A stretch of 64,000 bases of DNA from Candidatus Omnitrophota bacterium (lineage in GTDB: Bacteria > Omnitrophota > Gorgyraeia > Tantalellales > Tantalellaceae): positions 75,430 to 139,429 of the forward strand of contig JBARQV010000015.1 of assembly GCA_049643885.1 (NCBI GenBank). The letters run 5' to 3'. The number at the start of each line of letters is the position of its first letter. Position 1 is the stretch's first letter. The notes under the pieces are model-generated. The model made no database searches. It saw only the letters and a list, made by a program, of their open reading frames with translations, and had not been told where the DNA came from. Of the stretch, positions 3,045 through 56,750 are shown piece by piece. A program made the position numbers and the translations under genes.

Positions 3045-4559
3045 ATGATGAAAGTGAATTTAGCTGGATACAATGTCGACACCACGGTTTTGCGTGAACT
3101 TGAGCAAAAGTACGGAAAGCGCGAAGACCTTACCCCGGAAGTCCTTTCGGCCGCTTATGCCCGTATCAGCCGGGATCCCAGGCCCATCGATGAGATCAGA
3201 AAAGACGCGCGGGAAGAAGTAGAAAAATCGAGGAGATCCAATTCTTCAATAATATTCAAGATGGGGCATCACTCTGTCGCTGAGCACGCTGTGTTTAACC
3301 TTGATATCCTGGGAGTTTCAAGATATGCGATGGAGGAGGTGGAAAAGTTCCGTCTTTGTTCCTACACTGAAAAATCACAAAGGTACATCACGCTCGACAA
3401 GGATTTCGTTATTCCCGAAGAGATCAAGGGGACCCGCCATGAGAAGACGTTTCTGGACATGATCCATGAACAGAACGAGGCATATTTTGAGCTGTACGAA
3501 AAACTCAAAGACTGGGTGTTCAAAAAACATCCCGAACTTGCCGCTGATCAGAAGAAGCATGATCTCCTTGAGGGGTGGGCAAAAGAGGACGCCCGCTATG
3601 TTACGGCGCTGGCAACGGAATCACAGGTAGGGCAGACGGTCAACGCCCGGAGTCTTGAACTCATGCTCAGGAGGTTCGCTTCTCACCCCCTGGAGGAAGT
3701 CCAGAAACTGGGCCGGAGGCTGTATGAAGAGATAGCCCACGTAGCGCCTTCTATTGTCATTTTTCATGAAGCTAACGACCGTGACCTTAAGACATATCCC
3801 GAGCTTAAGGAAACAACGCGAGAATTCATGCACGGCGTATCCGGATCTTCTTTTACCGGGGAAGAAGTCCGGTTGGTGGAATTCACAAAAAATGCCGATG
3901 ACGTGATCGCTTCTTCATTCGTGCACACTTCTTCGGGCGTGCCATATGAACGGTGCAAGGAACTGGTAAAGAACCTGACAGGGGAACAGAAAGCGGAGAT
4001 CTTTAAGGCCGCATGCCGGAACATGCAGTTTTACGATTCCATGCTGAGGGAATTCGAATACGCCGATCTTACCTTTAATATAGTACTTTCGGCTGCCTGT
4101 TTCGGTCAGCTGAAAAGGCACCGCATGTCCACTATCACTTCGCAACCTTATGACCCCGGGCTTGGTATTACTATTCCTGAATCGATAAAAGAGATCGAAA
4201 TGGAGAAGTATTTCCGGGGAATAGTCGACAGGACCAATGAGGTATATGAGCAAATAAACAAGGAGTTTCCCCTGGCAGCCCCATATATCCTCACCAATGC
4301 CCACCGGAAAAGGGTATTGATACGGCTGAACGCCAGGGAATTATACCATATATCCCGCCTGAGAGAAGACGCTCACGCGCAATGGGATATAAGGAACGTT
4401 TCCATGGCCATGACAGAGCATGCTAAAAAAGTCATGCCCCTGACCTTCGGGCTGGCAGGAGGCAAGGACAGGTATAGCGAGGTCTACCGGAATATTTACG
4501 GCCGGATCCCGAAGGCAACAGAAGCTATGCTGCCGGGCGTCAGGAACATAAAGACCTGA
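3045..4559 (+). CDS. thyX: flavin-dependent thymidylate synthase ThyX, tandem-duplicated (two ThyX domains in one chain)
   Basis: First half has HHSVAEH plus SYTEKSQRY, but KFR in place of RHR. Second half has RHRMSTITSQ(P)Y plus AHAQWDIR. The 510-aa length is consistent with fused ThyX domains. Start may be the ATG at 3045 or at 3048, after a GGAGGG Shine-Dalgarno. Confidence 0.8.
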   Translation: MMKVNLAGYNVDTTVLRELEQKYGKREDLTPEVLSAAYARISRDPRPIDEIRKDAREEVEKSRRSNSSIIFKMGHHSVAEHAVFNLDILGVSRYAMEEVEKFRLCSYTEKSQRYITLDKDFVIPEEIKGTRHEKTFLDMIHEQNEAYFELYEKLKDWVFKKHPELAADQKKHDLLEGWAKEDARYVTALATESQVGQTVNARSLELMLRRFASHPLEEVQKLGRRLYEEIAHVAPSIVIFHEANDRDLKTYPELKETTREFMHGVSGSSFTGEEVRLVEFTKNADDVIASSFVHTSSGVPYERCKELVKNLTGEQKAEIFKAACRNMQFYDSMLREFEYADLTFNIVLSAACFGQLKRHRMSTITSQPYDPGLGITIPESIKEIEMEKYFRGIVDRTNEVYEQINKEFPLAAPYILTNAHRKRVLIRLNARELYHISRLREDAHAQWDIRNVSMAMTEHAKKVMPLTFGLAGGKDRYSEVYRNIYGRIPKATEAMLPGVRNIKT

Positions 4560-23979: not shown

Positions 23980-24135
23980 ATATGTCATCCCAGGCGAGGC
24001 TGTAAGAAAAATATGTCATCCCGGACGGCCGAAAGGACGATCCGGGATCAAACAAGATTATTATTTGGTCCCCGCTTTCGCGGGGATGACATACTTCTAA
24101 ACCGGCGAATTCCGGGATGACAGGCAACATACGAG
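23980..24135. mobile_element. MITE-like palindromic repeat cluster with ATGTCATCCC(A/G)GG ... CCGGGATGACA(T) termini (copy locus 1, composite)
   Basis: Fills the whole intergenic gap. Contains two ATGTCATCCC heads, internal hairpins ATCCCGGA/TCCGGGAT and CCCCGC-TTTC-GCGGGG, and two GGGATGACA tails. A homologous element is at 56638-56750. Confidence 0.6.
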
Positions 24136-27141: not shown

Positions 27142-27450
27142 ATGAAAAACAAACAAGAGGGCAATCTTTACGCTGTATTGTCCTATCTCTGGGTTCTATG
27201 CCTTATACCGATCTTGTTAAAAAAAGATGACGAATTCATTATTTTTCACGCCAAGCAGGGGCTGGTGCTGTTTATCACGGAAGCAGCGTTCAGCATAATA
27301 GGGATAATCCCGCTTTTGGGCGGGCTGGTCGCAAAACTCGGGATATTTATCTGCGGTATACTTTCTCTTATCGGGATAGTGCAGGTTCTAATGGGCAATA
27401 AATGGAAAATACCTGTGATAGGGGATTGGGCCGAAAGAATTACAGTTTAG
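27142..27450 (+). CDS. DUF4870-family small membrane protein
   Basis: YAVLSYLWVLCLIPIL...GII motif, typical of DUF4870. Confidence 0.55.
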   Translation: MKNKQEGNLYAVLSYLWVLCLIPILLKKDDEFIIFHAKQGLVLFITEAAFSIIGIIPLLGGLVAKLGIFICGILSLIGIVQVLMGNKWKIPVIGDWAERITV

Positions 27451-32423: not shown

Positions 32424-33086
32424 TTGGCAGTTAGTTCAAGGGTTAAACGTCAGATAATACGCAAGATTTACAACAAGCTTGAAAAGCGTTTCGGGGATCT
32501 GGGGTGGTGGCCGGCGAGCTCGCGATTTGAAGTGATAATTGGGGCGGTCCTGACGCAGAATACTGCTTGGAAAAACGTAGAAAGGGCCATAGCAGAATTG
32601 AAGCGGGAAAGGGTCATGAGCCCTGGAAAAATATTAAGGATAAGCGGCACAAGATTATCCGGGCTCATAAGGTCCGCCGGGTATTACAGGGTAAAGGCAA
32701 AGAGGCTTAAATCTGTCTGCAGTTTTTTAGAGGAAGAAGGCGGTTCAGGGCTGTCAAAACTAAAAAGACAGAGCACCAGGGCGCTCAGAGAAAAACTTTT
32801 GAAAGTCAATGGGGTCGGGCCGGAGACAGCGGATTCTATCCTTGTCTATGCCATGGAAAAGCCGGTTTTTGTAGTGGACGCGTATACTAAAAGGATATTT
32901 TCCCGCCATGGTCTTGTCGCTGAGAGCGCGTCTTATGACGAGATCCAATCTCTTGTCCATGAAAATTTTCCGAAAACGGTGAAATCCTTGAACCAGTTTC
33001 ACGCTCTTTTGGTAGAGACCGGAAAAAGATACTGCAAAAAGAAAAAAGCGCTCTGTGAAGAGTGCCCGTTATGTAGACTCTTGTAG
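32424..33086 (+). CDS. endonuclease III-related HhH-GPD protein
   Basis: LTQNTAWKNV; HhH GVGPETADSIL; C-terminal CEECPLC. TTG start after a GGGGAGG Shine-Dalgarno. Confidence 0.65.
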   Translation: MAVSSRVKRQIIRKIYNKLEKRFGDLGWWPASSRFEVIIGAVLTQNTAWKNVERAIAELKRERVMSPGKILRISGTRLSGLIRSAGYYRVKAKRLKSVCSFLEEEGGSGLSKLKRQSTRALREKLLKVNGVGPETADSILVYAMEKPVFVVDAYTKRIFSRHGLVAESASYDEIQSLVHENFPKTVKSLNQFHALLVETGKRYCKKKKALCEECPLCRLL

Positions 33087-33230
33087 TTTGTGGTTTGGAT
33101 CCATCAGCGCGGGTGGCGCTACAGTGTCCGAGCACCGCACAAACCAGTGGCGCGGAGGCGCGCAGGACACTGAGCGACAGGACCCGCACACTGGATGCTG
33201 GATGTCAGATACCGGATAATGAATAGTAAA
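33087..33230 (+). repeat. ~140-nt intergenic element, copy A (inverted partner at 37037-37170)
   Basis: Termini TAGTTTGTGG(T/G)TTGGATCC ... CAGGACCCGCACACTRGATGCTGGATGT..CAGATACCGGATAATG are conserved with the reverse complement of 37037-37170. GC-rich variable core with internal stems. Confidence 0.6.
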
Positions 33231-33269
33231 TAATGGAGTTTGGGATTTTTCATGTAAAGGGGGTGAAGC

Positions 33270-33563
33270 ATGATCTTTGGGATTTTCAGGAAAAAGAAAG
33301 AGGAAGAGATAAAAGGGGTCCTTATTGGGGAAGTCGTGCATTATTTCCGGAAGGTAAAAGCCGCGGTGATCAAAATAAAAAAGAATAAAGTTTCCGTCGG
33401 CGACGACATACGGATCAAAGGTCATACTACGGATTTCGGCCAGAAGGTCAAATCGATGCAGATAGACCATGAGTCCGTTGAAAGCGCCGCAAAGGGTAAA
33501 GAGGTGGCGATCAAGGTAGGGAAGAAGGTAAGAAGAGGGGACAAGGTATATATAGTAAGCTAA
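33270..33563 (+). CDS. hypothetical small protein (EF-Tu domain-2-like beta-barrel?)
   Basis: Pattern VGDDIRIKGHTT...EVAIKV...GDKVYIV is reminiscent of translation-factor beta-barrel domains. Weak assignment. Confidence 0.4.
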   Translation: MIFGIFRKKKEEEIKGVLIGEVVHYFRKVKAAVIKIKKNKVSVGDDIRIKGHTTDFGQKVKSMQIDHESVESAAKGKEVAIKVGKKVRRGDKVYIVS

Positions 33564-33579
33564 CCCCACACTTCCGTGT

Positions 33580-33628
33580 GGGGAATGGATACTAAATGTG
33601 GAAGGATGCTACAGGCGGAAGCCTGTAG
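33580..33628. repeat. GGGGAATG(G)ATACT...CTACAGGC-GGAA-GCCTGTAG repeat (GNRA-capped 8-bp hairpin), copy 1
   Basis: Perfect hairpin with GGAA tetraloop. Preceded by the CCCCACAC-TTCC-GTGTGGGG hairpin. A second copy is at 56349-56379. Confidence 0.5.
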
Positions 33629-33645
33629 AACAAGGGTCGGAAAGC

Positions 33646-34425
33646 ATGGAAGAGTTGGCGAAGATCAAGGAAGTGGCTGTCAGTGTCGCGCAAGAGGCGG
33701 GGAATTATGCGCTTCAGCGAATGGGACATCTGAAGCAAGTCTCCCAGAAAAGCGGGAGGACCGACCTGGTGACCGATGTCGATAAAAAATGCGAAGAGAT
33801 CATCATCGGCAGGATCAAAAAAGATTTTCCTGCGCACTCCATACTGGCCGAGGAAAGCGGGGAGTACAGCCGCGAAGCCGCTCATAGGTGGGTAATAGAT
33901 CCGTTGGACGGGACGACGAATTACGCTCATTCTTTTCCTGTATTTTGTGTTTCTATCGGCGTAATGCTGAACGATAAGGTGAAGCTGGGCGTTGTCTATG
34001 ACCCGTCCAGAGAGGAACTCTTTATGGCCGAGGACGGCAAGGGCGCATTCCTTAACGGAAAAAAAATCAAAGTATCCGGGACGAAAGCGCTTCAGGATTC
34101 ACTTGTCGTAACGGGTTTTGCTTACAACATTCAAGGAAAGATAGCGAATGTTGAATATTTTAAAAAAATGTTGGAAATCACACAGGCAGTAAGGCGTTTA
34201 GGGTCTGCCGCTCTGGATCTTTGCTATGTCGCGTGCGGAAGGTTTGACGGCTTTTGGGAATTGGGCCTTAACCCTTGGGATATGGCCGCAGGGCAGCTTG
34301 TGGTCAAGGAAGCAGGCGGAATCGTTACGACAATGAGAGGCGGACCTTTTGATATCTTTAAAAAAGATATAACGGCAACGAACGGAATAATTCATGATGA
34401 AATGCTTAAGGGCATGATTCATTAA
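33646..34425 (+). CDS. inositol monophosphatase family protein (SuhB/IMPase-like)
   Basis: WVIDPLDGTTNYAHSFP and Li-sensitive phosphatase motifs. The internal ATG at 33646 is preferred over the 33598 start. Confidence 0.75.
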   Translation: MEELAKIKEVAVSVAQEAGNYALQRMGHLKQVSQKSGRTDLVTDVDKKCEEIIIGRIKKDFPAHSILAEESGEYSREAAHRWVIDPLDGTTNYAHSFPVFCVSIGVMLNDKVKLGVVYDPSREELFMAEDGKGAFLNGKKIKVSGTKALQDSLVVTGFAYNIQGKIANVEYFKKMLEITQAVRRLGSAALDLCYVACGRFDGFWELGLNPWDMAAGQLVVKEAGGIVTTMRGGPFDIFKKDITATNGIIHDEMLKGMIH

Positions 34426-34516
34426 TCCTACCAGGCGTATCTATAACTCCCTTAATGTAAAGCACTTTAAAAAAAAGAATTTTTTGACAATTATGGTTAA
34501 GATATAAAATAGTTAG

Positions 34517-34545
34517 TTGACTCAAAGAAGAATTTCACCTATAAT
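34517..34545 (+). promoter_or_regulatory. sigma70 promoter TTGACT-N17-TATAAT
   Basis: Consensus spacing and hexamers. Upstream of the ORF at 34594. Confidence 0.5.
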
Positions 34546-34593
34546 GTAAACTACAAAAAAGCTAGGTAATCAGCAACTTTTAAGGGGAAAATT

Positions 34594-34965
34594 ATGAAAT
34601 ATAGAACATTGATCGAACTTATATGTGATGCGATTGACAAGGATGATGCTATCCATACCGCCGGTGAATTTCTAAGAGGCGAAGTGGAATCGGGCGTGGA
34701 CATGCGCTATAGCGCCAGAACACTCAGGTCGCACCGCGCGTTCAAATACGGTTTTACCGGGCTTCTTGTTTTGTGCCTGATCTCCACCTTATATATAGGT
34801 TACGCGACAAAGGAAAAGAACGAGACCCTGCGACACATCACGGGATATATATTAAGCAATACCTGCACGATCCAGCCGGTTTTGAAAACCCAGCATACCG
34901 AAGAATTTAAGGAAAAATGGGAAAATAAAAAGAGCGAGGTTATGTTCGATCATTTAAAGAAATAA
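34594..34965 (+). CDS. hypothetical membrane protein
   Basis: One central transmembrane segment. GGGGAAAA Shine-Dalgarno. Confidence 0.4.
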   Translation: MKYRTLIELICDAIDKDDAIHTAGEFLRGEVESGVDMRYSARTLRSHRAFKYGFTGLLVLCLISTLYIGYATKEKNETLRHITGYILSNTCTIQPVLKTQHTEEFKEKWENKKSEVMFDHLKK

Positions 34966-34993
34966 ACAGCGCTTGGTAAAAACGTCAAAAAAA

Positions 34994-35023
34994 GGAGGGG
35001 CAATAAGACCCCTTCTTTTTTTT
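34994..35023 (+). terminator. intrinsic terminator (GGAGGGG-CAATAAGA-CCCCTTC then T8)
   Basis: Stem-loop plus U-tract after the ORF at 34594. Confidence 0.7.
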
Positions 35024-35078
35024 GTAAATTGACTTTTGTTCATGTATAATAAACACATAAGTCGATTCAGGTGAAAGA

Positions 35079-35510
35079 ATGGTCGAAAAACGCGGAAGAT
35101 CCGGAAAAGAAAAAAAGCGCACGATACTCGTGGTTGATGATGAAATAGGGATAGTGTCTTTCCTGTATGATTTTTTTGTCCGTAAAGGATACGATGTCCT
35201 ACAGGCAACCGACGCCAATAGTGCCCTCCAGACAGTAAAGAAAGAAAATCCTGATCTTGTTCTTCTGGACATCAAGCTGGGGCACGGGAAGAGCGGCATG
35301 GACGTGCTCCGGGAGATAAAGGAGATCAAACCCAGGCAAAGGGTCATAATGATGACCGGGGTTACTGACAAGAAGGTGATTAACGAGGCCCTTCGTATAG
35401 GAGCGGATGATTATATGATCAAGCCTTTCAGCCTGCAGCATCTGGAAAGGGTTGTCGCTCTCAAGATATTGACCCTCGAAATAGAACGTATCGGAGAAGG
35501 TGGAGGGTAA
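35079..35510 (+). CDS. single-domain response regulator (receiver)
   Basis: ILVVDDE...LLDIKLG...MMTG..D...K pattern. Confidence 0.75.
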   Translation: MVEKRGRSGKEKKRTILVVDDEIGIVSFLYDFFVRKGYDVLQATDANSALQTVKKENPDLVLLDIKLGHGKSGMDVLREIKEIKPRQRVIMMTGVTDKKVINEALRIGADDYMIKPFSLQHLERVVALKILTLEIERIGEGGG

Positions 35511-36018
35511 TATTTTGAGCCGGAAAAAGATATTTAAAGGACGGCTCATCAATGTTTTGACAGAAGAAAAGACCCTGCCCGACGGGAGAAAAGCATATTT
35601 CGAAAAGATAGAACACCCCGGAGCCGCTTTGGTCCTTCCTTTTACCGCCAAAAAGATAGTTTTCATCCGACAATACCGCTGTGTAATAAGAAAATACATC
35701 TGGGAACTTCCCGCAGGGATCATCTCGCGGGGGGAGACGCCTTACGCCTGCGCCAAGAGAGAGGTCGCGGAAGAGACCGGCTACAAAGTAAGAAATCTAA
35801 GGCGTATCGGTACGATTTATACTACCCCGGGTTTCTGTAATGAAAAGATATATATCTTTTCGGCTGATTGTTTTAAAAAGAGAGCGCCGAGAAGGGAAAA
35901 AGACGAGCACATAAAGGTGAGACTTTTCAGCAGGACGGAGGTCAAGGGGCTTTTTAAAAAGGGCAAGATCACAGATTCGAAGACGATCGCCGCTCTCGCG
36001 TTTGCCGGTATAATTTGA
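35500..36018 (+). CDS. NUDIX hydrolase (ADP-ribose pyrophosphatase-like)
   Basis: Nudix box GIISRGETPYACAKREVAEETGY. GTG start overlapping the upstream stop. Confidence 0.75.
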   Translation: MEGNILSRKKIFKGRLINVLTEEKTLPDGRKAYFEKIEHPGAALVLPFTAKKIVFIRQYRCVIRKYIWELPAGIISRGETPYACAKREVAEETGYKVRNLRRIGTIYTTPGFCNEKIYIFSADCFKKRAPRREKDEHIKVRLFSRTEVKGLFKKGKITDSKTIAALAFAGII

Positions 36019-36056
36019 ATATAAATACGTGTAGAGCAGGCACTTTCGCTATGAAC

Positions 36057-36085
36057 TTGACAATCATATATATATAAGATATACT
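36057..36085 (+). promoter_or_regulatory. sigma70 promoter TTGACA-N17-TATACT
   Basis: Perfect -35 with 17-nt spacer. About 30 nt upstream of the ORF at 36115. Confidence 0.6.
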
Positions 36086-36114
36086 CCAAGCTAAAGGTCA
36101 AAAAGGGGGATAAT

Positions 36115-36429
36115 ATGAAAAGGCATTTGACGTTTTTGGTCATAGTAGCGTTTATTTTTTGTTCTATAAGCATTGGAGCTTTTGCGTCTACAAACAAGCC
36201 ACTTAAGAATCTTGGGCAGGGACTGGACGATATCTTATACGGTCAGCTGGAAGTACCTGATAATGCCAATGAGACAGGCACCAAAGGTTCACCGGCATAC
36301 GCGGATTGTACGGATAAGACAAATGACGATGTCGGAAGAGGCATCGCCAGGTTTGTAGGCGGTCTCTGGCGCATAGCGACTTTCTGGTATCCCGAGGAAG
36401 ATACTGCTACTGAAATGACCATGAAGTAA
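36115..36429 (+). CDS. small secreted protein, hypothetical
   Basis: Signal peptide MKRHLTFLVIVAFIFCSISIGAFA. GGGGGA Shine-Dalgarno. Confidence 0.45.
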   Translation: MKRHLTFLVIVAFIFCSISIGAFASTNKPLKNLGQGLDDILYGQLEVPDNANETGTKGSPAYADCTDKTNDDVGRGIARFVGGLWRIATFWYPEEDTATEMTMK

Positions 36430-36451
36430 CGCGCAGGAACGGTTTGTAAAA

Positions 36452-36490
36452 AAAGCCCGCTTGTTAGACAAGCGGGCTTTTTTTATAACT
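36452..36490. terminator. bidirectional intrinsic terminator (AAAGCCCGCTTG-TTAGA-CAAGCGGGCTTT flanked by A7/T7)
   Basis: Perfect 12-bp stem with A-run upstream and T-run downstream, between convergent genes. The nitroreductase stop codon lies in the loop. Confidence 0.8.
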
Positions 36491-37036
36491 ATTGAACGAT
36501 AGAAGTTCTTTCCTGTCCTTGAGGTGTTTTTCCGGAAGGTCCTGCTCTGACGGATAGCCCAGAGCAATAACCAGCTCTATCTTTTTACGGAATGGGACGG
36601 AGAGGATCCTTTTAAGTCTTCGTTCGTTGAACCATCCGAGGATACATGTCCCTATGCCGAGGTCCTGCGCCTGTAGAACCAGGTGAGCGCAAGCTATCCC
36701 TATGTCTATGTGCCGGAAATTGACGTTTCTCGCTTTACCGCCCAGCCACGCGGGCAGTACCTGCTTTTCAGCTACGATTGCGATAAAAGCGCGCGCTTCC
36801 CGGGCGAAGGAATTCATGCCCCCGGGGCCGTATGCAACAGCTTCTGCAGTGAACTTTCGTTTTTCAGGGTCGTCGATGATTATGAAGCTCCACGGTTGAG
36901 AATGACAGGCAGAAGGAGAATACCGCGCCGCTTCAATGCAGATCTCAAGGTCCTTTCTGCTTATATCGGCAGCGGAATAAGACCTTACACTTCTTCTGTT
37001 TTTAGCTAGTTCGAGAAAAGAATTCATAATAACCAA
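36464..37036 (-). CDS. nitroreductase-family protein
   Basis: RRSVRSY N-terminal motif and FMN-binding nitroreductase fold signature. 190 aa. Confidence 0.75.
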   Translation of the reverse strand: MVIMNSFLELAKNRRSVRSYSAADISRKDLEICIEAARYSPSACHSQPWSFIIIDDPEKRKFTAEAVAYGPGGMNSFAREARAFIAIVAEKQVLPAWLGGKARNVNFRHIDIGIACAHLVLQAQDLGIGTCILGWFNERRLKRILSVPFRKKIELVIALGYPSEQDLPEKHLKDRKELLSFNSYKKSPLV

Positions 37037-37170
37037 CCCCCATTATCCGGTATCTGATGTTTAACATCCAGCATCTAGTGTGCGGGTCCTGTCTACACCT
37101 TCTGCCGTCAAGGATCCGGCACAATGAAATGCTCTGCACCCGCCCCCAAGGATCCAACCCACAAACTATT
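37037..37170 (-). repeat. ~140-nt intergenic element, copy B (inverted relative to 33087-33230)
   Basis: Reverse complement matches copy A at both termini. Lies immediately 5' of the minus-strand nitroreductase gene. Confidence 0.6.
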
Positions 37171-37208
37171 ATTTACTAATCCTATGATTATTGATTATAA
37201 TATAACTA

Positions 37209-38030
37209 ATGCGTAAGTTACAAATGTTATTATTTGCTGTGTTCTCTCTTCAGTTAGTGCTTTCAGGATGTGCCAATACCGGAAAGATAAGATATATTGG
37301 CAGGGCAAGCGGTGTCACTAAAAATGAAGTTACCACTTCGATGGCTACCAAACCGCAATTGCACTACCGTAAAAGGTTTACATTTTTGATGGCCTGGAAC
37401 GGTATCCCGATCGGCAGCGTAGTCGCGGAGATAGGTGATATCATAAGGTATCGCGGACGGGATGTTTACGTGGTGACGCTGATCACGCGTTCAAACAAGT
37501 TTCTTTCCAAAATATATAAAGTGGAAGATAAGTATATATCATATGTCGACACGGAGACCATGACCAGCCGGAGATATGAAGCTGACCGGAAAGAGGGCAA
37601 TTACAGGAAGCATGTGATCGTCGAATATGATTTTGACAAGAACGAAGCTATCTATACGAACTTGACCGACGGTTCGGTTAAACGCTGCGCGATAGAAAAA
37701 GACGTCCAGGACCCGTTAAGCGCTACTTTTTATTTCATGACCGTGCCGGTGAAAGTTGATGACGAGATCAGGATAACGGTCAATCTGAACGAAAAGAACT
37801 ACAAGGTATTCGGGAAGGTAGAGAGCCTTAATCTTATCAAATTGCCGGGGTTGGGTTCGTTTCCCGCATTCAGGATCCGGCCGTATGCTATACTGGGTAA
37901 TGAACGATTCAAAAAAGGAAGAGGCTGGCTTTACGTAATAGCGGATAAAAGACGATACCCGCTGTATGGCGTCGTCCTTATACCTTTTGGCAAGGTGACC
38001 TCGACCCTGGCCAAGGTTGAGGATATATAG
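37209..38030 (+). CDS. lipoprotein, DUF3108-like (tentative), hypothetical
   Basis: Lipobox LVLSGC. Beta-rich sequence. Confidence 0.45.
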   Translation: MRKLQMLLFAVFSLQLVLSGCANTGKIRYIGRASGVTKNEVTTSMATKPQLHYRKRFTFLMAWNGIPIGSVVAEIGDIIRYRGRDVYVVTLITRSNKFLSKIYKVEDKYISYVDTETMTSRRYEADRKEGNYRKHVIVEYDFDKNEAIYTNLTDGSVKRCAIEKDVQDPLSATFYFMTVPVKVDDEIRITVNLNEKNYKVFGKVESLNLIKLPGLGSFPAFRIRPYAILGNERFKKGRGWLYVIADKRRYPLYGVVLIPFGKVTSTLAKVEDI

Positions 38031-52451: not shown

Positions 52452-52650
52452 TCTGCGAAAACAATAAAATCTTTCCCATCCAAATTTTTTAACGGTATTT
52501 TTCAAACTTTTGAAGGGCATAAAAGAACTCGCCCCCGCTGCTTCGCTTTGCGAAGCAAAGCGACGGGGGCTCAGACGTCCTTTTACGCTTTTTTCCTTCA
52601 AAAGTTATAAAAATACCTAAAATTTGGAAACGGGTCCCTTTGATCTTATT
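52452..52650. repeat. ~200-bp imperfect palindrome (long hairpin/MITE-like) in convergent intergenic region
   Basis: Left arm CTGCGAAAACAATAAAATC...TTCAAACTTTTGAAGG and right arm CCTTCAAAAGTTATAAAAATACC...TTGTTTTTGCAG are reverse complements at roughly 75-80%. Central perfect hairpin CGCTTTGC-GAA-GCAAAGCG flanked by GCCCCC/GGGGGC. Confidence 0.6.
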
Positions 52651-52828
52651 GTTTTTGCAGCGATAATTTTCGTCCGGATGTAAGTTGCACAGTGCAGTAT
52701 GTTCCCGTACAGGGAGGATCCACACCGGGCGGAGGGGCCCTGGTAGGGAATATACTGCGCTGTGATCTTCACTTCCTCGCTCCGCTTCGCATTCTGCTGT
52801 CTGATGTCTGATAACAGTGCGATTGCAC

Positions 52829-55934: not shown

Positions 55935-56357
55935 ATGCCGGGATATAACGTAAGCCAGAAAAAAGAGAAAAATCTCAGGGAGAAAATGCGCCGCCTGGGC
56001 ATAAAGGAAAGCGACCTTAGCGAGCGGTTCATACGTTCCGGAGGACACGGCGGCCAGCATGCCAATAAAGTATCTACGTGTGTGCATTTGAGGCACAGGC
56101 CGACCGGAATAGAAGTCAAATGCGGGCGGGAAAGATCGCAGGCATTGAACAGGTTTCTGGCAAGGAGGATACTGGCGGACAAGATAGAGGCCGTGAAGCT
56201 TGGCAGGGAGTCGGAAGAAAGAAAGCGTATCGAGAAAATAAGAAGACAAAAACGAAAAAGATCGAAAAGGGCGAAAGAAAAGATACTGGCGAACAAGAAG
56301 AAACGCGCCGAGAAAAAGAAACTGCGCAAAACCCCACACTTCCATGTAGGGGAATGA
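55935..56357 (+). CDS. arfB: alternative ribosome-rescue factor ArfB (peptidyl-tRNA hydrolase, RF-1 domain)
   Basis: GGQ motif RSGGHGGQHANKVST. Basic C-terminal tail. 140 aa. Confidence 0.8.
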   Translation: MPGYNVSQKKEKNLREKMRRLGIKESDLSERFIRSGGHGGQHANKVSTCVHLRHRPTGIEVKCGRERSQALNRFLARRILADKIEAVKLGRESEERKRIEKIRRQKRKRSKRAKEKILANKKKRAEKKKLRKTPHFHVGE

Positions 56358-56379
56358 TACTACAGGCGGAAGCCTGTAG
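56349..56379. repeat. GGGGAATGATACTACAGGC-GGAA-GCCTGTAG repeat, copy 2
   Basis: Identical 20-nt GNRA hairpin and GGGGAATG(G)ATACT lead as at 33580-33628. Overlaps the arfB stop and ends 9 nt before the smr start. Confidence 0.5.
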
Positions 56380-56637: not shown

Positions 56638-56750
56638 ATGTCATCCCAGGCGAGGCCGCAGGCCGAGACCCGGGACCACGTAATAATTTTATTTGATCCC
56701 GGATATTTGCCTTCGACGAATTCCGGGATGACATACAACTGCTGAAACGG
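56638..56750. mobile_element. MITE-like element, ATGTCATCCCAGGCGAGGC ... TTCCGGGATGACAT (copy locus 2)
   Basis: 12-13-bp terminal inverted repeats (ATGTCATCCCAGG / CCGGGATGACAT). About 105 bp. Internal CCCGGGA/TCCCGG stem. Same head and tail as at 23980-24135. Confidence 0.6.

Follow-up and report, generated by a model that had tools for sequence, protein, structure and literature searches.

The window, that is, the whole 64-kb stretch of Omnitrophota DNA analysed here, contains a 3.8-kb gene block bracketed by two copies, A and B, of a short GC-rich intergenic sequence that we call repeat X. Upstream of copy A lies an EndoIII-like (HhH-GPD) gene (32424-33086, plus strand), the stop codon of which abuts the repeat, and the first gene after the copy encodes a 97-aa protein with a weak Peptidase_U32_C match (33270-33563, plus strand). 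The block carries the genes first assigned to it (IMPase, a response regulator, NUDIX, a nitroreductase, and small secreted or membrane proteins), and its two transcription units converge, as previously noted, on a bidirectional terminator-like hairpin of 21 bp (36444-36488; 95% perfect) flanked by A and T runs. The nitroreductase gene (36464-37027, minus strand) lies downstream of copy B, and a promoter-like site, TTGTAA-18-TATAAT, is present on the same strand at 37194-37223 within TATATTATAATC, a motif that precedes the nitroreductase gene across Omnitrophota loci. Because of this site, copy B probably falls within the nitroreductase 5′ UTR. A sigma-70 scan detected no promoter-like site inside X that reads toward the genes. 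No transposase, invertase, or recombinase gene was called in or next to the 3.8-kb block, and no transposase or RAYT-like gene was called in the 82 kb examined.

The inverted GC-rich pair is real, and a repeat finder recovered both of its arms as they had been described: a 5′ arm of 32 nt (33084-33115 and 37137-37168; 84% identity) and a 3′ arm of 50 nt (33176-33225 and 37044-37093; 82%), with no exact identity longer than about 15-17 nt. Each of the consensus strings quoted in the preliminary description has exactly two matches in the 64-kb window, against a chance expectation of 0.00-0.04. The best coordinates, 33084-33221 on the plus strand for A and 37041-37168 on the minus strand for B, differ by a few nucleotides from those first given. 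Conserved termini around a diverged core were likewise recovered, in that the 32-nt 5′ part and the approximately 50-nt 3′ part are common to A and B while the centres (about 60 nt in A versus about 43 nt in B) are unrelated and cannot be aligned; the internal stem CAGTGTCC...GGACACTG of copy A was also confirmed. Both copies sit just upstream of a gene start as claimed, although the shared sequence of A stops 48 rather than 40 nt before the ATG at 33270. Copy B stops 13 nt (originally about 15) before the nitroreductase ATG at 37027, a start that agrees with the gene call in a fragment from the species (L001). The conserved 3′ terminus is present in both copies but proved to be composite, consisting of the end of the element fused to a 7-nt tandem array: only ...GACAGGACCCGCACACTRGA belongs to the repeat common to A, B, and a third copy, C, and the remainder (GCTGGATGT..CAGATACCGGATAATG) is part of the 7-nt-periodic array. 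The core of X is small, about 95-125 nt, with ends that resemble TTGGATCC-N6-GCGGGTG ... CACCCGC-N5/6-GGATCCAA. In copy A, the core (TAGTTTGTGGTTTGGATCC...GACAGGACCCGCACACTGGA; 33084-33195, plus strand) begins at the TAG stop of the EndoIII-like gene and is common to B and C. In copy B (37074-37168, minus strand), the 5′ and 3′ portions correspond to those of A and C, and the centre is unrelated to theirs.

The array, of the form [nnnGGAT]n, follows A at 33190-33245 (plus strand) as the degenerate heptamers ACTGGAT GCTGGAT GTCAGAT ACCGGAT AATGAAT AGTAAAT AATGGAG TTTGGGA, and its lag-7 autocorrelation of 0.59 over 33190-33252 was reached by none of 2000 shuffles. The corresponding array after B (37028-37079, minus strand) enters the nitroreductase ribosome-binding region and has one unit (TTAAACA/TAAACAT) more, which accounts for the 7-nt (TAAACAT) difference in length between A and B; apart from this unit, the two tails are identical at 46 of 47 positions. 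Each tail presents 4-5 GGA motifs at 7-nt spacing, adjoining a ribosome-binding site. The nearest relative, L089, has the array in its nitroreductase leader without X: the array of B aligns with it, and the array after A matches it at 26 of 31 positions. Among MAGs of this species, such arrays vary in length by a single unit, and 7-nt tandem arrays occur in leaders as well as at gene ends, where one-unit changes between strains shift the MurC C-terminus.

Copy C lies on the same contig, 35 kb away (L092, 20731-20841), between murC and murB, in sense orientation and 15 nt before the murB ATG. It matches A at 91% identity over 110 nt, with centres that are about 96% (96.5%) identical; it shares no flank with A or B and has no heptamer tail. 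An nhmmer search with an A/B/C profile, all filters off, covered 82 kb of the contig and some 0.9 Mb from further loci, most of which belong to other Omnitrophota; A, B, and C were its sole matches, and no further or degenerate copy appeared in this approximately 1 Mb of fetched DNA. The copy-number check proposed in the preliminary description yielded a third copy over a scope of 82 kb of this contig, with all three copies on one 172-kb contig. All three are intergenic and sense-oriented, with a start codon 15-75 nt downstream (orientation p = 0.125). Their relationship is that of a mosaic: the outer 5′ end is common to A and B, GGATCC-N6-GCGGGTG to B and C, and the centre to A and C, whereas the block GACAGGACCCGCACACTRGA occurs in all three and the tail only in A and B. 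The make-up is accordingly modular, with five segments in differing pairings and heptamer arrays attached on different sides. A reading of X as a small ORF was rejected: there is no conserved reading frame, the open frames of A and C differing from those of B. Six-frame translations of A and B, searched for copies mis-called as genes, had no relatives among 5.8 billion proteins.

Comparison with related genomes shows sites A and B without X in orthologous loci of L005, L006/L009, L007, L089, and others. The EndoIII-like and 97-aa genes are separated by 183 nt here, compared with 19 nt (L005) and 20 nt (L007) in the relatives, and X together with the array after A amounts to an insertion of about 158 nt. 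Similarly, the distance from the nitroreductase promoter motif to the ATG is approximately 30-50 nt in the relatives compared (L006/L009, L007, L011, L012, L014, L018, and L089) versus 166 nt here. In L005 and L007, X is absent and the gene order and orientation of the block are kept; within the host species, fragments from all four MAGs (L001-L004) agree in the order and orientation of the genes around copy A. No target duplication was seen at A or C. Copy B is flanked by TAAATAA and TAAACAT where L089 has a single TAAACAA, which could equally be one heptamer unit.

Structure prediction gave MFE z-scores of -2.8 for A, -1.6 for C, and +0.14 for B, the fold of B being no more stable than that of shuffled sequence. 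The predicted stems P0 (AUCC/GGAU) and P1 (GCGGGU/ACCCGC) correspond to the sub-terminal complementarity of X, the outermost ends of which are not inverted repeats. A 20-nt block and both stems are invariant across the copies, and the centres have been replaced. The proposed covariation check on A, B, and C detected none: the covariation term was unfavourable (+3.45; three sequences, and hence low power), and, of the 29 pairs predicted, those in stems that all copies have are unchanged throughout these three sequences. With Rfam 15, the whole window returned only a tRNA elsewhere at gathering thresholds, and A, B, C, and the L005 insert returned only noise at E<=10. Exact-pattern scans for the conserved block gave 0 matches in GTDB representatives, 0 in JGI metagenomes, and 0 in IMG/VR; a single JGI match to the 19-mer invariant in all three copies was set aside as chance, since it falls within high-GC coding sequence from an unrelated organism. 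No plasmid or phage relatives of X were found by blastn in 'distant' mode. A family of GGATCC hairpins carrying CCGTACAGGGAGGATCCACACCGGGCGGAGGGGCCCTGGTAGG occurs at the same site in L005, and X was considered as a divergent member of it; this candidate was rejected when the family covariance model missed A, B, and C at E<=10.

Of the three interpretations raised in the preliminary description, a dispersed MITE-like family fits best, given the third copy, the empty orthologous A and B sites, and the mosaic copies. X is probably a repeat of the MITE/REP/BOX type, palindromic and non-autonomous, that inserted recently in transcribed spacers and is co-transcribed in leaders; as far as searchable data show, it is restricted to this Omnitrophota species. 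A and B are most likely ordinary repetitive DNA, and their bracketing of the 3.8-kb block is incidental. Under the dispersed-repeat reading, A would have inserted between the EndoIII-like and 97-aa genes, C between murC and murB, and B in the nitroreductase 5′ UTR, about 20 nt downstream of the putative transcription start. Mobilisation would most likely have been in trans, by an enzyme that we infer to be encoded elsewhere in the genome, none having been seen. After insertion, copies may swap segments through recombination or gene conversion, which would account for the mosaic pattern. The tail shared by A and B appears native to the nitroreductase leader, which suggests that A originated from a local copy comprising X and the leader array, not from a clean transposition. 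When co-transcribed, X could form a long GC-rich hairpin (P0 + P1) and may affect mRNA processing or stability. Several features count against a mobile repeat, namely the absence of clean terminal inverted repeats in X, the match between the flanking leader sequences of A and B, which resembles segmental copying and not transposition, and a uniform sense, start-proximal placement that need not be expected of a plain selfish element.

A less likely idea is that X does not move at all, and that A, B, and C instead derive from one GC-rich leader sequence that underwent a small number of ectopic segmental duplications or gene conversions. X would then be a low-copy paralogous non-coding segment, as the lack of clear terminal inverted repeats and target site duplications, the at least 31 nt of nitroreductase-type leader that follow X in A, and the mere three copies seen on one 172-kb contig, with no relatives in the public collections scanned, would all lead one to expect. 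This origin is nevertheless doubtful, since the three-way mosaic (A with B, B with C, and A with C) calls for more donors or events than a set of three copies would readily supply, the flank of C is unlike that of either A or B, and three copies per 82 kb suggests many more genome-wide.

It is unlikely, in turn, that X and the GGA-rich heptamer array constitute a lineage-specific cis-regulatory 5′ leader under common post-transcriptional control now, which would have reached the 97-aa/IMPase operon as a copy of the nitroreductase version, with X alone copied to murB, and which would be controlled, for example, by a GGA-motif-binding protein or hairpin-dependent processing. All copies are in sense and near a start codon, B is downstream of a conserved promoter and therefore probably transcribed, the nearly identical A and B tails place GGA motifs at 7-nt spacing beside the ribosome-binding site, and the 20-nt block and P0/P1 are invariant though the centres were replaced. 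Against this stand the orthologous leaders of all relatives examined, from which X is missing, together with the lack of an Rfam match or compensatory change, the shuffled-like fold of B, downstream genes without a common function, and the tail-less C. More specifically, X plus [nnnGGAT]n as a portable 5′-leader cassette copied between units that answer to one post-transcriptional regulator (a CsrA-type GGA-binding protein or a hairpin-recognising RNase) is quite improbable; if true, it would represent regulon growth through movement of leader RNA in a poorly known phylum. The array motif CUGGAUG resembles the CAGGAUG-type repeats bound by CsrA, and no CsrA-like ORF was found in 82 kb, a span that is uninformative for the whole genome.

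A riboswitch or shared regulatory leader acting as a conserved regulator, another of the interpretations first raised, is not supported. The three copies are all in sense and directly upstream of a start codon, and X resembles the cis-regulatory leaders catalogued in Rfam in its 5′ UTR location and GC-rich stems; unlike these, however, it has no Rfam match, cross-species conservation, or covariation, and it lies upstream of unrelated genes. There is no sign that X senses a ligand or provides shared regulation. The remaining proposal, in which A and B would form the terminal inverted repeats of either a composite transposon or a 3.8-kb segment inverted by a recombinase, is extremely improbable despite the inverted arrangement around a discrete block, because L005 and L007, relatives that lack the repeats, carry these genes in unchanged order and orientation, no recombinase or transposase was called in or beside the block, X extends beyond this pair to a third site, L001-L004 are uniform around copy A, and exact identity between the arms is so short.

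Among known systems, the BOX elements of Streptococcus pneumoniae and the enterobacterial BIME/REP sequences are short, non-coding, intergenic modular repeats with recombining modules and stem-loops, situated within transcription units and without a transposase of their own. X is likewise modular and intergenic, probably lies within transcription units, and has no transposase of its own, but has no sequence similarity to them, numbers three known copies versus about a hundred to hundreds there, and combines a length of 95-125 nt and a replaceable centre with no GTAG-type REP head or RAYT gene seen. Correia/NEMIS elements of Neisseria and ERIC sequences are MITE-like, 100-150 nt long, situated in leaders and intercistronic spacers, polymorphic for presence or absence, and co-transcribed as hairpins; X is similar in size, in its leader and spacer sites, and in its presence or absence between relatives. 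Correia elements have clear 26-bp terminal inverted repeats and a TA duplication, whereas the complementarity of X is weak and sub-terminal (ATCC-N5/6-GCGGGT), with no consistent duplication. Mycobacterial interspersed repetitive units (MIRUs) occupy operon intercistronic spacers in one orientation to transcription and abut neighbouring stop and start codons, much as the first position of A coincides with a stop codon and the end of C lies 15 nt short of a start codon, and short tandem repetition is found in both; MIRUs, however, are tandem and contain small ORFs coupled to their neighbours, while X is single-copy per site and has no conserved frame.

X itself matters little, as one more small intergenic repeat family in an uncultured Omnitrophota species (the JBAR* MAG series, with isolates labelled MFD, apparently Microflora Danica). 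It does serve as a caution that a GC-rich, stem-forming element before start codons can mimic a riboswitch, and that empty orthologous sites reveal recent insertion. The window holds several other small intergenic hairpin repeats, which suggests a genome rich in such elements. The by-products of the analysis may matter more, namely the heptamer arrays of leaders and gene ends and a cross-species hairpin element. The latter, a separate element at 52681-52774 of the window, looks more interesting than X: its core of 39-42 nt is almost unchanged from one Omnitrophota species to another, its outer stem covaries, and other Omnitrophota repeatedly carry it in the same nitroreductase leader.

The inverted pair of GC-rich elements bracketing a 3.8-kb gene block was borne out, as a repeat finder recovered both arm pairs: the 5′ arms (33084-33115 and 37137-37168) are 84% identical over 32 nt and the 3′ arms (33176-33225 and 37044-37093) 82% over 50 nt. 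The consensus strings quoted in the preliminary description each occur exactly twice in the window, with none expected by chance. Pairwise alignment of copy A (best limits 33084-33221, + strand) with copy B (37041-37168, - strand) likewise confirmed conserved ends around a diverged core, the centres being unalignable. According to ORFs and gene calls on the source contig (given as JBARSM010000022.1, 172 kb, from the Candidatus Omnitrophota bacterium MAG GCA_049644745.1), genes for a HEAT-repeat protein, an M48 peptidase and an EndoIII-like protein (32424-33086) precede copy A, the last of them directly. Copy A is followed by a gene for a 97-aa protein (33270-33563) and then by those for IMPase, a 123-aa protein, a receiver-only response regulator, a NUDIX protein and a 104-aa protein; a hairpin terminator (36444-36488) comes next, then the nitroreductase gene (36464-37027, - strand) and copy B, beyond which lie DUF3108 and further genes. 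Copy A and the same 97-aa gene are also found in three sister MAGs, and the ENA assembly ZINK19-1 holds a near-identical scaffold. Just after copy A, the sequence at 33226-33249 (GTAAATAATGGAGTTTGGGATTTT) is similar to that at the beginning of the 97-aa gene (33263-33286, GTGAAGCATGATCTTTGGGATTTT; MEFGIF versus MIFGIF), which could be due to chance or to a partial duplication of that region, 37 nt long, upon arrival of the insert.

Syntenic loci in related Omnitrophota were reached via nitroreductase homologues. In two of them, L005 and L007 (74% and 70% amino acid identity), gene order and orientation are exactly as in the window, from the HEAT-repeat gene to DUF3108, a second M48 peptidase and flavodoxin, and the 3.8-kb block is present without the repeats. 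At site A, the EndoIII-to-97-aa spacer measures 183 nt in the window versus 19 and 20 nt in L005 and L007, respectively, and the final ~25 nt before the 97-aa ATG (TTTTCA..AAAGGGGGTGAA) can be aligned between the window and L007; thus, the window carries ~158 extra nt (33087 to about 33244). At site B, the motif TATATTATAATC, which contains a -10 hexamer, lies upstream of the nitroreductase gene in most Omnitrophota loci examined. Its distance to the nitroreductase ATG is about 30-50 nt in L006/L009, L007, L011, L012, L014, L018 and L089 but 166 nt in the window, the difference being filled by copy B, which would therefore lie within the inferred 5′ UTR, starting ~20 nt past the inferred transcription start. 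Judged by these comparisons, copies A and B are most parsimoniously regarded as insertions gained in the window lineage. The motif itself gives TATAAT on either strand and, in most Omnitrophota loci examined, stands in the spacer separating the divergently oriented DUF3108 and nitroreductase genes (37194-37223 in the window; orthologous positions in L005-L023 and L089). The leader downstream of it has been repeatedly lengthened by unrelated insertions, namely the repeat in the window, a GGATCC hairpin in L005 and further sequences in L010, L015 and L021.

The conserved 3′ terminus of the preliminary description stands as a similarity between A and B, but this apparent end of the element is a degenerate heptamer array, [nnnGGAT]n. 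Following the core of the repeat, hereafter X, copy A reads in register ACTGGAT GCTGGAT GTCAGAT ACCGGAT AATGAAT AGTAAAT AATGGAG TTTGGGA, and copy B reads ACTAGAT GCTGGAT GTTAAAC ATCAGAT ACCGGAT AATGGGG GTTGGTT ATTATGA. Lag-7 autocorrelation is 0.59 for A (matched by 0 of 2000 shuffles) and 0.51 for B (1 of 2000), and the 7-nt indel between them equals exactly one array unit. The nitroreductase leader of the nearest relative, L089 (76% amino acid identity), lacks X and is also a heptamer array (AAAGATA TTGGATA ATGGATA GTGGATA ATGGAA), with which the B tail is colinear; this indicates that the array is native to the nitroreductase leader and that its 5′ edge was the insertion site of X. Copy B has TAAATAA on one side and TAAACAT on the other, against one TAAACAA in L089; this may be a target duplication of 7-8 bp or no more than an array unit. 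The A tail and right flank match the L089 leader at 26 of 31 positions, and site A in the relatives has no array; copy A thus looks like X plus leader array copied between the EndoIII and 97-aa genes, its centre perhaps later swapped with a C-type copy. Such 7-nt arrays ([nnnGGAT]n, (AGAAGAC)n) occupy leaders and gene ends (window 33190-33245 and 37028-37079; L089 62-108), and similar ones precede the third copy, C. The murC stop codon lies at an (AGAAGAC)n array (L092 20513-20556, on the same contig but beyond the window, at about 71897-71940 in its coordinates). Compared with L093, from another MAG of the species, this array differs in length by exactly one unit, and the MurC C-terminus moves accordingly from 458 to 464 aa. 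Slippage by whole units would thus be ongoing in this species, possibly as the source of such variation.

Copy C came to light when the contig was extended by 10 kb on each side of the window (L092 20731-20841, window coordinate about 72115-72225, outside the window). It belongs to the dcw cluster, where it lies in sense orientation in the 308 nt separating murC from murB, 15 nt ahead of the murB ATG. Its identity to A is 91% over 110 nt and rises to 96.5% over the centre absent from B. The three copies are mosaics of one another: the outer 5′ end (TAGTTTGTGGNTT) is common to A and B, GGATCC(K)TGGGGGCGGGTG to B and C, and the centre to A and C, while GACAGGACCCGCACACTRGA occurs in all three and the tail (GCTGGATGT..CAGATACCGGATAATG) only in A and B.

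X is a new repeat of a known kind, rather probably a small non-autonomous dispersed one of the MITE/REP/BOX type, whose copies would occupy transcribed spacers and recombine among themselves. The earlier interpretation is thus borne out in part, a dispersed MITE family coming closest among its proposals, given the third copy and the empty sites; against a clean MITE assignment stand weak TIRs, the lack of a consistent TSD or visible parent element, and a set of just three known copies. That these are instead a few non-mobile segmental duplications is unlikely. Short intergenic repeats are evidently plentiful in this genome, which raises the probability of the ordinary reading of X. An A/B/C profile run with all filters off found no other copies, either in 82 kb of this contig or in roughly 0.9 Mb from other loci. 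Exact-pattern scans of GTDB representatives and IMG/VR and blastn against plasmids and phages found no relative, nor did the first pattern in JGI metagenomes, where the invariant 19-mer gave a single chance match in coding sequence. Since no true relative emerged, X appears restricted to this species within the data searched.

X is neither a known RNA nor coding: A, B and C matched nothing in Rfam 15 at gathering thresholds or E<=10, its six-frame translation had no relatives among 5.8 billion proteins, and the open frames of the A/C type differ from those of B. A regulatory role, as a portable leader module, is quite improbable, even though all copies lie close to a start codon in sense orientation and GGA motifs abound in the tail. 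Minimum free energy beats shuffles for A (z = -2.8), marginally for C (z = -1.6) and not for B (z = +0.14). In the consensus fold of the three copies, the AUCC/GGAU and GCGGGU/ACCCGC stems are retained, both without any variation and with an unfavourable covariation term. With neither conservation nor covariation, no Rfam match, and no functional coherence downstream (a U32_C-like/IMPase operon, nitroreductase and murB), a regulatory leader, riboswitch-like or other, gained no positive support. The proposed composite transposon or invertible segment is highly improbable and fails, because the A-B block is syntenic in repeat-less genomes and no recombinase was called in it.

The GGATCC hairpin element (window 52681-52774, + strand; core CCGTACAGGGAGGATCCACACCGGGCGGAGGGGCCCTGGTAGG) recurs in L005 (2678 and 2760), L016 (6902-6995 and 13297-13390), L017 (588-680 and 2424-2512), L012 (890-982) and L019 (2845-2937). 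Six full-length copies, spread over four Omnitrophota species whose proteins share only 60-75% identity, have the same core sequence, and in the alignment of all eight copies 39 of 42 core positions do not vary. The outer stem (10-14 bp) varies in sequence while keeping complementarity, with compensatory changes in 11 of 22 pairs. Five of nine copies adjoin a nitroreductase gene, being just upstream in L016 and L017 and forming two tandem units in L005, in the leader position that copy B takes in the window. The element has no match in Rfam and none in IMG/VR, and its covariance model does not recognise X; candidates for its nature are a structured RNA not yet described and a mobile element inserting into hairpins. 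In the spacer just upstream lies a ~150-nt self-complementary palindrome (52479-52628; arms 72% identical, centre GCTTCGCTTTGCGAAGCAAAGCGA).

Two further repeat pairs occur in the window. The first (33564-33604 and 56330-56372; AACCCCACACTTCC(G/A)TGT(G/A)GGGGAATG.ATACTA, 86% identity over 44 nt) forms an 8-bp hairpin with a UUCC loop directly past the stop codons of the 97-aa gene and an RF-1-domain gene, respectively. The second, intergenic (24012-24080, - strand, and 56664-56735, + strand; 76% over 72 nt), contains the hairpin ATCCCGGAT...TCCGGGAT. Finally, a 102-aa gene at about 27142-27450 (3873-4181 in the same-species fragment L001) has a Pfam match to MamF_MmsF, a magnetosome membrane protein family.
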